Source: Eledone cirrhosa
Taxonomy: Eukaryota
Direction: 5' to 3'
Length of the DNA stretch: 64,000 bases
Assembly: GCA_964016885.1 (NCBI GenBank)
Contig: OZ024750.1
Span: forward strand, 10,850,001 to 10,914,000
Below, one piece after another: positions 36,036 through 40,200 of this stretch; the first letter of the stretch is position 1; each line of letters begins with the position of its first letter. A program made the translations under genes and the position numbers. The notes under the pieces were generated by a model, which did no database searches, was not told the origin of the DNA, and saw nothing but the letters and a program-made list of their open reading frames with translations.

Positions 36036-36746
36036 CTAAGTTCAAAATACAAACTAGCGCCATACAAAACTGCCCCAACAAATGAATGATGAAACAATTT
36101 TGTCTAGTACCGTGTGCAAAGACTGAAAATAGCAGCCGTTCAAATGACCAAAGGTTTCTCTACCGTGGGGGAGAATAATAATAAAAGTATGTGTTCCTAC
36201 ATGTAAATAATACACATAGGGATACAAGTATAGTCCGACCGTATGCCAGTGTGGTTCAATGGCAAGTTAATACATTAACAAGCCAGAACATATAAAATCA
36301 AGGGAAAGCAAATAAAGAAAAAAATTTTAAATAAATTTCAAAAAATTCACTGTACTAGACAAAATTGCACACGGTACTAGACGAAATTGTTTCATCATTC
36401 ATTTGTTGGAGAAGTTTTGTATGGCGCCAGTTTGTATTTTAAACTCAGGAATCTTATATTCTCCGAGAGAGAAAAGCCTTCTGACGAGGATCTCTTTCTC
36501 AATGGAAATCCGCTTGGATTATCTATTTGTTTTGGGATCTGAAACCGCTGTAAAGGCACATATAGTAAGTATAGTGAATTTTTTGAAATTTATTTAAAAT
36601 TTTTTTCTTTATTTGCTTTCCCTTGATTTTATATGTTCTGGCTTGTTAATTTATTAACTTGCCATTGAACCACACTTGCATACGGTCGGACTATACCTAT
36701 ATCCCTATGTGTATTATTTACATGTAGGAACACATACTTTTATTAT
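36036..36746. mobile_element. Retrozyme/PLE-like non-coding element, two partial copies in inverted orientation
   Basis: 36036-36352 and 36364-36746 are permuted inverted copies of one unit homologous to 39336-39945; carries the hammerhead at 36476. Confidence 0.7.
36476..36557 (+). ncRNA. Type I hammerhead ribozyme
   Basis: GCCTT-CTGACGA-ggatctc...gggatct-GAAAC cgct GTA-AAGGC. Confidence 0.85.
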
Positions 36747-36747
36747 G

Positions 36748-36925
36748 TTGGCAGTATCGGTAGAGGGTTGGACGCCATGCTTTCTAGCATAGTTACGTCC
36801 CTTTACAGTCTTAGTTCAAATCCCGCCGAGGTTAACTTTGCCTTTCATCCTTACGGGGTCGATAAAATAAAGTACCAGTAATGTACTGGGTAATTGCTGG
36901 CCTTGTGCCTAAAGTAGTAACAATT
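36748..36925 (+). mobile_element. SINE S1, ~230 bp upstream of the PLA2-like ATG
   Basis: Consensus match; another copy at 38100-38287(-). Confidence 0.9.
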
Positions 36926-36931
36926 ATATAT

Positions 36932-36975
<44 letters not shown>

Positions 36976-37150
36976 ATGAATGAATAACGATGAAACCAAA
37001 ATGACAAATTCTTTCTTTCATTCTTTCCTTCTTTCTTTCTTTCTTTCTTACCGTTCTTTAGAACAACGCTGTGATAATGAAGATTATTAATTGTTTTGTT
37101 TAGTTGCTATGGTTTCACTCAAGAGTCCTTTTTACGTCAAATCAGTAACA

Positions 37151-37202
37151 ATGGTTTTATTCCGTTATTGGATGTATTTCGCTATTTGCATCTTTGTTCC
37201 GG
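37151..37202 (+). CDS. PLA2-like exon 1 (signal peptide)
   Basis: acaATGG start, hydrophobic [18 protein letters not shown]|gtaaga donor at phase 1 matching exon 2. Confidence 0.7.
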
Positions 37203-40200
37203 GTAAGAAACACAGTGCTAATATATTTCTCTGGATCAATGGTTACTCTGTATATGTATGTGTGGAGACTTCTGCTGTCTCTGGCCCTAGGACTACCTCC
37301 CTACTCGCCAACATCGGCACAGAGTTGGCTACCCGCAGGCGTGTACCTCGCGAATTAGAATGGCTTTTCCGGCACATCTCTCTCATTGTCCTCCGGAGGA
37401 AACGTTTTCTCTATTCTGTCTGGTGGGGCCGGAGAGAATAGAGAGATGTGGAGAGTGGGAGAGACGGGGGGCAGTGATAGTGGAAGTTCGGCCCTTGTTA
37501 CATTGGGTTCGAACCTGGTGTATATGTATACATTTGTTTACCACATTAGAAATATGGTTATGAAAAGGTTAATTTCTTTTCAAAGTCACAAAAACAAGTT
37601 TCCATCTGTTTGCTTCATATTTTTAATATTATATAATCAACTAGTGGAAAGTGTAAATGAATGTGTGTGAACACATGTGTGTGTATATATATGTATATAT
37701 ATGCAGGTATAAATCTGCCCAGCAATTCTTTCCTGAGACATTCTAACCACATGCCCATAGTATCGGAGGTGTGATCTCCCAATTCGGAGAAGTAGCGGCT
37801 CAACCTGGAATGACTCTCTGATCTCCCAGCTACGCACTTTATTGAGTAACGTTACTCCAAAGACCTTTCGGTAATCCCGGAGGTAGATCCCGAGCAGGAT
37901 TGTTGGATAACATCCATAAACTTGGCTAGTCTCGCTTGGAGATTCAGCCGGATCAGTTGGAGACAATTGCTTCTGGCAGGACCCACTGGAAGGACTGTTT
38001 GAGGACTTTGCCCCCCACGATCCTTTCAGAAATAAGCGGGCAAAGAAGTTGTTGACTATTTATTTATAATTTTAGCGATTCAATTTATAGACAATATTGT
38101 TTATAATTTTGGCACAAGGCCAGCAATTATCCCAGTACATTACTGATACTTTATTTTATCGACCCCGTGACCCCGTAAGGATGAAAGGCAAAGTTAACAT
38201 CGGCGGGATTTGAACTCAGACCGTAAAATGGCGTAACTCTATGCTGCAAAGTATGGCGTCTAATCCTCTACCGATACTGCCAATCCAATATTGCAAGTAT
38301 ATAATAATCTACACACGGTGAATAACGTTTTAAGGAAGTTTAAAAACTGCATAGCTTAAATGATAATGGTCCAATTTATAATAGACAATAATTTATTCTA
38401 GAAGTATTGATTATATATAAGCAGAAATCTATTTATTTAACAATTACTTATTACCATAAGTATATAAATTTATCGATGCCGTAAGGAGGAATATGAACAA
38501 TTATAATTTTATTGTTTGTCGCAAGGAACGAAGATGTTGGGGACAGCACAAGGATTGGGTTACAAGACAATGAATGTTTTAGATAGAATAAACAAGGCGA
38601 CGGTTTTTAGGCTTCACAATGTTGAAGGCGTGTGGCTGAGTGGTTAGAGAATTGGATTCGCAATCGTGAGGTTGTGAGTTCGATTCCGGACCGGGTGATG
38701 CGTTTTGTCCTTGAGCAAGACACTTTATTTCACGCTGCTCCTTCTACCTGGAGTTCCGACCGATAGATAGTATTAGCAATTGGAAAGAGCGATGGAAGCA
38801 TTGTTTCGAATAGAACAAAACCGTCTAACCCATGCTAGCATGGAAGATGGACGTTAAAAGATGATGATGATGATCTCTATCTCTGTCTGTCTGTCTGTCT
38901 GTATGACACTCTCTCTATCTCTCTGTCTCTTACCCAACCGTTCTGTCTGTCCCTTTCACTCTCAGAATCCTGAAGCAGTGAGAAGAACGTGGGAGACCAT
39001 TTACAGTTTCCCTTCTACCCGAAGGCAACCACTTTCCTCAATCTATTTGTGTAGTGTGTGAGAGAGAAGACTGCGTTGGTATGGTCATGTGATGCGCATG
39101 GAAGATGACCGCTGGGTGAAGAAGTGTCAAGAAATCCCAGTGGAAGGAAGACGCAGTAGAGGAAGACCACGAAAATCATGGGTGGAAGTGGTGACAGCTG
39201 ACCTGAGATTGCTGAATCTCACAGAGGAGATCACGAGAGACCGTGCCGAATGGAAAGATTCTGTGCTGAATAGGACCCGGTCCCACCCTTGCAAGCAGGG
39301 ATAAGCGGACGTAGAATGATTATATATATATATATATATAATCAAGGTTTAGCAAATACGAAAAAGTATTAAAATAAATTTTAAAAAGTTCACTATACCT
39401 GTTATAATTACCCTTACCGCGCGGTTTCAAGTCTCAAAATAAATGGATAATCCATGCGGAAATCCATTGAGAAGAAGACTTTCGTCAGAGGGTTCTTCTC
39501 ACTCGGAGAATATAACATTTCCGAGTTCAAATCACGAACTGGCGCCATACAGAACCGTTCCCGGATGAGAGTGTATGATAAAGAAACACTTTTGTCTAGT
39601 GCCGTGTGTAAAGATAGAAGGCAAGGGCGGAAAGGTCAATGTACTGCCACTAGAAATAGCAGCAGTTAAAACGACCAAAATGTTATCTCGACCAGGGGAG
39701 ATTAATAATAATAAAGTATGTTTTTCTACATGCAAAATGCATATAGGGACACATGTATTATCCAACCGTATGTCAATGTGGTTCTATGGCAGGTTAATAA
39801 ATTAACGAGCCAGAACATATATAATCAAGGTTTAACAAATAAGAAAAAGTTTTAAAATAAATTTAAAAAAGTTCACTATACCTGCTATGGTTACCTTTAC
39901 CGCGCGGTTTCAAGTCTCAAAATAAATGGATAATCCATGCGGAAAAAACAAATATATGAACGTTTGAGCTGACCCCACGTATATCCATATAGTTTCTTTC
40001 TACTTGTGCTATATATATATATATAAATATATATATATATAAAATATATAATCGTATATACATGTGACATGCATGTATGTGTGTGTGTTTGTATGTATGT
40101 ATACATCAATGCATATAATGTATATCTGTATTTATATAATTTCTCTTTCTCTCACACTAGCTCATCACGCAGGAGAGGATATAATTTCCGATTTAGGTAC

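Follow-up and report, generated by a model that had tools for sequence, protein, structure and literature searches.

Hammerhead ribozymes in the window

The window analysed here, 64,000 nucleotides (nt) of the Eledone cirrhosa genome (assembly GCA_964016885.1, contig OZ024750.1, positions 10,850,001 to 10,914,000), contains two copies of a hammerhead ribozyme repeat, near 36.4 and 39.4 kb, together with putative exons of a phospholipase A2 (PLA2)-like gene. The repeat belongs to a dispersed, non-coding family with units of about 485 nt, which is a non-long terminal repeat (non-LTR) retrozyme and a non-autonomous Penelope-like element (PLE). On balance, we favour the explanation that the window segments are old, partial retrozyme insertions, likely made by a Neptune-type PLE acting in trans and likely copied from a circular monomer. 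The repeat-derived features of the window are as follows.

39410-39493, minus strand: complete type I hammerhead with palindromic stem III ACCGCGCGGT (motif scan and covariation)
39893-39945, minus strand: 3' half of a second hammerhead, without the CTGACGA core, predicted site 39898 (motif scan)
39336-39945, minus strand: subfamily A insertion of about 1.26 units (motif scan, repeat comparison and end mapping)
39415-39897, minus strand: 483-nt cut-to-cut monomer, 37% GC, with no open reading frame (ORF) and no similarity to PLE proteins
39334-39341, minus strand: major 3' end and presumed priming site, +74 to +81 past the cut, where an internal TATATAT merges into the target (TA)n
36476-36557, plus strand: type I hammerhead of subfamily B with damaged stem III and predicted cut after 36552 (motif scan)
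36365-36746, plus strand: forward arm of the subfamily B insertion, which starts at unit position ~287, includes the ribozyme and stops at the second canonical 3' end (~+190)
36036-36352, minus strand: the other, inverted arm of this insertion, covering unit positions ~17 to ~376

Scanning the whole window on both strands for the motif gave seven hits, and a 7-bp stem II was present in only two of them, the hammerheads at 39410-39493 and 36476-36557. The features of a type I hammerhead, namely the core CUGANGA/GAAA/NUH, stems I-III and an open stem I, were all found. In the 39410-39493 ribozyme, stem I is ACCCT/AGGGT, the core reads CTGACGA and GAAA with a GTA triplet ahead of the predicted cut after 39415, and the 7-bp stem II (AAGTCTT/GAGACTT) closes a longer inner hairpin. 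In the 36476-36557 ribozyme, stem I is GCCTT/AAGGC, stem II is GGATCTC/GGGATCT, and stem III, ACCGCTGT, is a damaged version of the subfamily form ACCGCGGT. An earlier note on this DNA had described the first ribozyme as complete, which the scan confirms, and the second as carrying compensatory changes, which scan and covariation bear out; the damage to its stem III had been overlooked. The Rfam models found neither ribozyme: there were no hits at the gathering score, and the hammerhead families were absent from the 17 hits at E≤10. The long stem II is probably the reason for this non-detection.

The insertion at 39336-39945 is 5'-truncated at ~437 of the unit, contains one complete unit from cut to cut and reaches the canonical +81 3' end in (TA)n, in agreement with the earlier description of one unit plus a partial tandem copy. 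Its site half is repeated at a distance of 483 bp (39334-39462 versus 39817-39945, 94% identity). This repeat had also been noticed before, but not that the 39898 site lacks the CTGACGA half and continues into the variant AAGGTAACC rather than AGGGTAATT (AAGGT, not AGGGT). In the 36.4-kb copy, the inverted and forward arms are 93-97% complementary, and the inverted arm joins downstream to upstream sequence; thus, as previously proposed, the unit is head-to-tail. Among the scored genomic matches, the closest relatives are 94-97% identical to the 39.4-kb copy and up to 95% identical to the 36.4-kb copy. Since the window copies belong to different subfamilies and are only 80% identical to each other, they are independent insertions, and both are old, partial, ordinary decayed ones. 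Each has one complete ribozyme, and neither has complete hammerheads in two consecutive units. With a single complete ribozyme, the 39336-39945 copy itself is, judging from its sequence, unlikely to release a unit-length RNA.

A dispersed family of tandem units

Searches of the 3.0-Gb assembly gave 2,366 candidates for the 39.4-kb unit (40 scored, 94-100% identity) and 2,554 for the 36.4-kb copy (40 scored, 88-100% identity). Exact pattern matches to three subfamily ribozymes numbered 286, 73 and 1,142, and a common 21-mer matched exactly at 1,490 sites, whereas each of the reversed controls gave 0. Of 96 older loci, no more than 50 contained the 21-mer, so that such counts are lower bounds for the family. 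At least six subfamilies were distinguished, and six natural units of 482-487 nt share 74-89% mutual identity; the units have 37-38% GC and contain neither an ORF nor similarity to PLE proteins. At the family level, tandem units with complete hammerheads in two or more consecutive units are present, and the earlier description of a non-coding, retrozyme-like unit is supported.

Arrays with as many as 10 tandem hammerheads are found in the young 485-nt subfamily, and identical young units occur on several chromosomes. The array at L141 (G000:C1:149203500-149212000) has 10 tandem ribozymes, with eight of its nine units identical, plus an inverted arm. Two further very young arrays, L196 (C2:275571500-275578600) and L206 (C1:82115200-82121800), resemble L141; each of the three comprises 8-10 units, carries an inverted arm and ends in (TA)n on both sides.

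The hammerhead structure is supported by covariation in stems I and II. From the loci, 99 hammerheads were collected, and 66 were aligned after truncated ones and most second copies of the same locus had been left out. Across 18 pairs, 96.5% of the cells were paired; 80 cells were altered on both sides, as against 27.6 in shuffles, and none of 500 shuffles reached 80. Pairing fell to 20-53% when partners were slid out of register. Kinship among the copies inflates these counts, and the signal amounts to about three independent swaps at the subfamily level. In one register, stem I of the 99 copies was ACCCT/AGGGT in 31, GCCTT/AAGGC in 20, ACCTT/AAGGT in 19 and the mismatched ACCCT/AAGGT in three, and the GTA triplet was kept in 97.

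Of the 99 older copies, 76 have a perfectly palindromic stem III, in three versions (ACCGTACGGT in 32, ACCGCGCGGT in 25 and ACCGCGGT in 19), and the young subfamily has a fourth, ACCGATCGGT. The predicted energy of a stem III duplex is -14 to -20 kcal/mol, as against -0.9 or 0 for a hairpin, and the central bases retain complementarity although they are unpairable in the hairpin. Considering this, we infer that the ribozyme may work as a dimer through stem III, as reported for the retrozymes of axolotl (PMC7229834). Predicted circular folds of the unit were more stable than shuffled sequences (z of -4.3 and -3.0, 40 shuffles each), which is no proof of circularity.

Insertion anatomy and the candidate helper

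Ends were mapped at 146 loci selected by the searches, which are biased to long copies and from which overlapping duplicates had been dropped. The 3' ends fall almost entirely at two fixed sites, about +81 and +190 past the cut (184 of 202): 98 lie at +72-90, 61 at +180-197, and 25 more, numbered 567/568 by the script, were reassigned because their printed sequence is that of the +81 end. Among the 159 3' ends that the script called canonical, 147 continue into TA-rich sequence. In contrast to these fixed positions, the 204 5' ends occupy every 20-nt bin round the unit, as in random truncation, and both orientations were found at 53 of the 146 loci. The insertions thus show partial tandems, 3' ends fixed at internal sites, truncation at the 5' end, inverted 5' copies and a microsatellite target, which match the hallmarks of PLEs (PMC8557442). 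They also match the anole PLE, which was shown to prime internally at two sites beyond the hammerhead and to extend both strands of its target (PMC11167929). In our family, both 3' end sites coincide with TA tracts inside the unit, which suggests that priming occurs by annealing of the target to these tracts of the template. With (TA)n as the target, the exact position of a junction is ambiguous and target-site duplications are unreadable.

Young PLEs with a reverse transcriptase (RT), a CX2-5CxxC linker and, at the C-terminus, a GIY-YIG domain are present in the genome (PF01541 profile search, 10,596 candidates, 150 scored), and one PLE family is very young, with 111 scored copies at 98-100% identity. 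The minimal hammerheads of the young PLEs carry the palindromic ACCGGT. L066 (G000:C1:145869300-145877600), the full-length copy of the very young family, is a Neptune-type PLE with a 938-amino acid open frame and pseudo-long terminal repeats (pLTRs). Its minimal hammerhead (ACCTT...GAAACCGGTA followed by AAGG) precedes the ORF and recurs at the 3' end; the core reads TTGAAAA, a U3-A8 variant. Copies of the L066 family have their 3' ends in (TA)n, either at +74-76 or at +141-143, and those of another PLE family have theirs at +196-202.

When the unit was compared with 55 GIY-YIG loci among the 10,596 candidates, ribozyme style and spacing alone proved common, and sequence matches were found at none of the 55; a comparison with the first 35 loci had given one weak, T-rich match. 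Eight PLE proteins matched four of 75 retrozyme loci and one of 100 (the 100 include overlapping stretches), with weak matches near L035, L098 and L118. The PLE ORFs near L041 and L100 were considered as parts of the unit and rejected, because they are separate insertions with microsatellites and other repeats between. No ORF for RT and GIY-YIG contiguous with the repeat was found at the retrozyme loci checked with the eight proteins. The helper is likely a Neptune-type PLE supplying RT and GIY-YIG endonuclease in trans, a placement suggested by the linker motif and by domain order (C-terminal GIY-YIG, CX2-5CxxC linker); the same linker is also found in Nematis (PMC8557442).

These results bear on a further reading, in which the copies are nothing more than solo pLTR ends, left by an autonomous PLE after 5' truncation had removed its ORF. 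Such ends would share their 3' design, a ribozyme followed by TATATA, with the autonomous PLEs of this genome, as the copies do, and the family has been sampled in part. However, the sequence on the upstream side of each ribozyme belongs to the preceding unit and never to an ORF, arrays hold up to 10 ribozymes, and PLE protein matches near the 75 and 100 loci are few, the two strong ones being those set apart by microsatellites and other repeats. We therefore consider this explanation very improbable, and for the young subfamily it is largely refuted. The earlier note had called for genome-wide data on copy number, arrays and linkage, with an ordinary PLE terminus as the outcome if every copy proved to be a pLTR attached to a full-length PLE. 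The existence of pure arrays without ORFs speaks otherwise, and "retrozyme versus PLE terminus" is a false choice, since the family is a retrozyme with the full insertion anatomy of a PLE.

The template of the insertions

The young arrays carry the evidence on the template. Among 114 full units from 33 loci, the mean number of differences was 0.75 within arrays (211 pairs) and 18.9 between arrays (6,230 pairs; median 5), and no bases were gained or lost at the cut-site junctions of the 114 units. At 12 of the 33 loci, a variant is fixed in all segments of the locus and absent from the other 32, and in five of the 12 it extends across both arms. One such private variant has 11 matches in the assembly, all in one insertion and on both strands, while the other 112 of 123 sites have the other letter. 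That the variant is confined to the two arms of one insertion points to copying from a single monomer, for which a circle is the simplest form. Such genomic evidence for a monomer template is stronger than what the earlier note had before it. From these sequence data we regard a circular monomer RNA as the moderately probable template. The fuller proposition, that the retrozyme is currently active and that its insertions were produced by a Neptune PLE which reverse-transcribed one ~485-nt circular RNA in a rolling-circle, twin-primed fashion, with nicked (TA)n DNA annealed to internal UA tracts as primer, seems to us evenly balanced.

In the mechanism we envisage, tandem arrays would first be transcribed. 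Adjacent hammerheads would then cut, probably as dimers paired through stem III, and the freed monomer would be closed by a host ligase; the structure comes from the covariation, and cleavage and ligation are assumed by analogy with the retrozymes of PMC7229834. At a (TA)n microsatellite nicked by the PLE endonuclease, RT would start synthesis internally on the RNA, from the TA-rich tracts at +81 or +190; this presumed chemistry fits the observed end positions and target. Finally, RT would pass the cut site and run round the circle until it falls off, leaving anything from 0.2 to over 10 units whose 5' ends are random, and the inverted arm seen in the anatomy would result from priming on each of the two strands of the target.

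Several observations weigh against this circular reading. A second private variant has only five of its seven matches in its own array and two outside, and five of the 33 young arrays carry variants that are shared by at least two of their units without extending to all. Three of 19 older tandem pairs, the window copy included, differ in a subfamily variant between their two sites, and such discordant pairs do not come from one monomer circle unless template switching or later conversion is involved. Both copies of the older pair L111 have the core change CTGACTA, which is expected to kill catalysis. No autonomous partner matching the unit sequence turned up among the 55 GIY-YIG loci. The source array may be missing from this one assembly, or the repeats may have been homogenised by polishing. 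The anole PLE could do without hammerhead cleavage in vitro, and its template was mainly uncut RNA (PMC11167929).

The last point would suit a variant of the same PLE-dependent scheme in which the template is an uncut, linear read-through of tandem source arrays. The hammerhead would then be a ribonucleoprotein or structure signal, and homogeneity would come from homogeneous sources or local conversion. The five heterogeneous arrays fit this scheme, as do the discordant pairs L001 and L008, in which each ribozyme is self-consistent across its own cut site, and the L111 pair, which was copied despite its dead core. On the other hand, a variant present in 11 segments, in both arms of one very young insertion only, requires a single-unit bottleneck followed by re-expansion, 5' truncation alone would shorten arrays in every generation, and the palindrome of stem III has been retained across four sequence versions. 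Uncut read-through appears unlikely to us.

A cut linear monomer would also account for a monomer bottleneck, if multimers arose by repeated jumps of RT from the 5' end to the 3' end held by stem I, with no circle; occasional chimeras such as the window copy would follow as well. There is a slight excess of 5' ends within ~4 nt of the cut (8 of 204, against ~3.8 expected), which is open to bias from the selection of queries, but a strong pile-up at the cut was not seen and the cut-site junctions of the 114 young units are seamless. We judge such jumping improbable.

Of 39 single changes within arrays, 32 lie at A/T and 3 are C>T or G>A, a class that makes up 44 of 191 changes in older copies. 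This pattern is compatible with RT or sequencing error, but the changes are too few to build on. Because the 19 older tandem pairs have decayed since insertion, their nearest-neighbour distances were uninformative, and three sequencing runs (one contig sample, type unrecorded) gave a DNA-like depth profile, with no bearing on expression.

Relation to known elements

Like the metazoan non-LTR retrozymes of coral, mussel and axolotl (PMC7229834), the family has non-coding tandem units with one type I hammerhead each and GC below 45%, ranges from monomers to multimers, co-exists with PLEs and has a palindromic stem III suggestive of dimeric activity. Unlike those retrozymes (~170-400 nt), its units are 482-487 nt long, with a 53-nt stem II unmatched by Rfam. 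Circles have been shown for the retrozymes of PMC7229834, whereas for the present family they are a prediction; conversely, insertion ends, target and monomer bottleneck can here be read from the genome, whereas for animal retrozymes circular RNA templates and PLE helpers are proposed rather than shown in that source.

Vertebrate retrozymes have been described as non-autonomous PLE derivatives (bioRxiv 10.64898/2026.07.22.740005). The present family is of the same class with many monomers, and its 485 nt lie within their range of 51-972 bp, so that unit size, which the earlier note had offered as a distinction, does not set it apart. Our arrays with two or more complete hammerheads fit the definition of "active" in that work. 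The vertebrate elements differ in that no sequence-related autonomous pLTR was found for the family here among the 55 GIY-YIG loci compared. Also, that work favours local tandem amplification after insertion, whereas the present arrays look as if made at insertion. Molluscs are not among its 35 species, and it states that the mechanism of retrozyme mobility is still to be elucidated.

Partial tandems, 5' truncation, an inverted 5' copy, two internal 3' end sites (the "tail"), a hammerhead upstream of the priming site and microsatellite bias are shared with endonuclease-containing (EN+) PLEs of the Neptune/Nematis type and with Poseidon PAc of anole (PMC8557442, PMC11167929). Unlike them, the family lacks an ORF and has a tail of ~110 nt rather than 30-40, and its 3' ends lie on TA-rich tracts matching the target, whereas PAc priming is described as independent of target homology (PMC11167929). 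Non-autonomous Chlamys elements such as MRC1 differ in generally sharing 3' sequence with autonomous families, and most Chlamys elements, unlike the present family, are described as lacking canonical hammerheads (PMC8557442).

In the literature searched, which had most subscription journals outside it, we found neither a report of a cephalopod retrozyme nor the use of array-private variants as evidence for circular templating. The class of retrozymes is already known, and the young subfamily is a good system for the mechanism of their movement and for the role of the PLE hammerhead. Its very young arrays are identical across chromosomes and carry private variants, its priming sites are defined, its target is simple and a young candidate for the helper is present, so that circular, linear and jumping models make distinct, testable predictions. 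If rolling-circle copying is indeed what the arrays record, they would be direct genomic evidence for a circular RNA intermediate in transposition and for PLE helpers, with template, target and candidate enzyme in one genome.

The PLA2-like gene and other hammerhead repeats

Two putative exons of the PLA2-like gene lie in this part of the window.

37151-37202, plus strand: putative first (signal-peptide) exon, with a GTAAGA donor and phase-1 GT (inferred from sequence)
40161-40308, plus strand: PLA2-like exon, PF00068 match at E=2.4e-4, below the curated cut-off (profile match)

The window contains no second copy of the 40161-40308 exon. The putative first exon sits between the two hammerhead copies, as the earlier note had pointed out: the 36.4-kb copy stops ~400 bp upstream of it, and the 39336-39945 insertion lies antisense inside putative intron 1. 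The interval between the copies is full of very high-copy repeats (36750-36930, 37640-38290 and 38620-39300), with pieces resembling short interspersed elements and 3' coding fragments resembling those of long interspersed elements.

Because the copies flank the putative first exon within 3.9 kb, both could in principle have been co-opted to regulate the gene. Against this, they are independent insertions of different subfamilies, the intronic ribozyme is antisense to the gene and the sense one is upstream and damaged, the interval is crowded with other high-copy repeats, and neighbouring independent insertions occur at other sampled loci as well (L039, L142 and L153). Co-option thus strikes us as extremely doubtful; the bracketing looks incidental, the gene is a bystander, and a link to it is unsupported.

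Some copies of the family are repeated along with their flanks (C2:172527895, 172547414 and 172562455; C2:253569 and 268341; C4:78.58 and 78.87 Mb); they apparently arose by segmental duplication, and the duplicates were left out of the counts. The hammerhead at L218:3452, minus strand (G000:C1:179255300-179259500), with a long stem II like the inner hairpin of the family and a palindromic stem III, ACCATGGT, is possibly a distant relative. Another dispersed hammerhead family (L071:533-587 and L083:7462-7516) has the palindromic stem III ATGCGCAT and ends in (TA)n ~45 nt past the cut. In the window, a further type I hammerhead-like motif with an 8-bp stem I, a CTGATGA core and a short stem II lies at 35123-35172 (minus), ~860 bp upstream of the subfamily B copy, and belongs to a different family. 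Finally, 1116-1164 (minus) and 1322-1389 (plus) form an inverted pair of another hammerhead family, with a PLE-like head-to-head anatomy.

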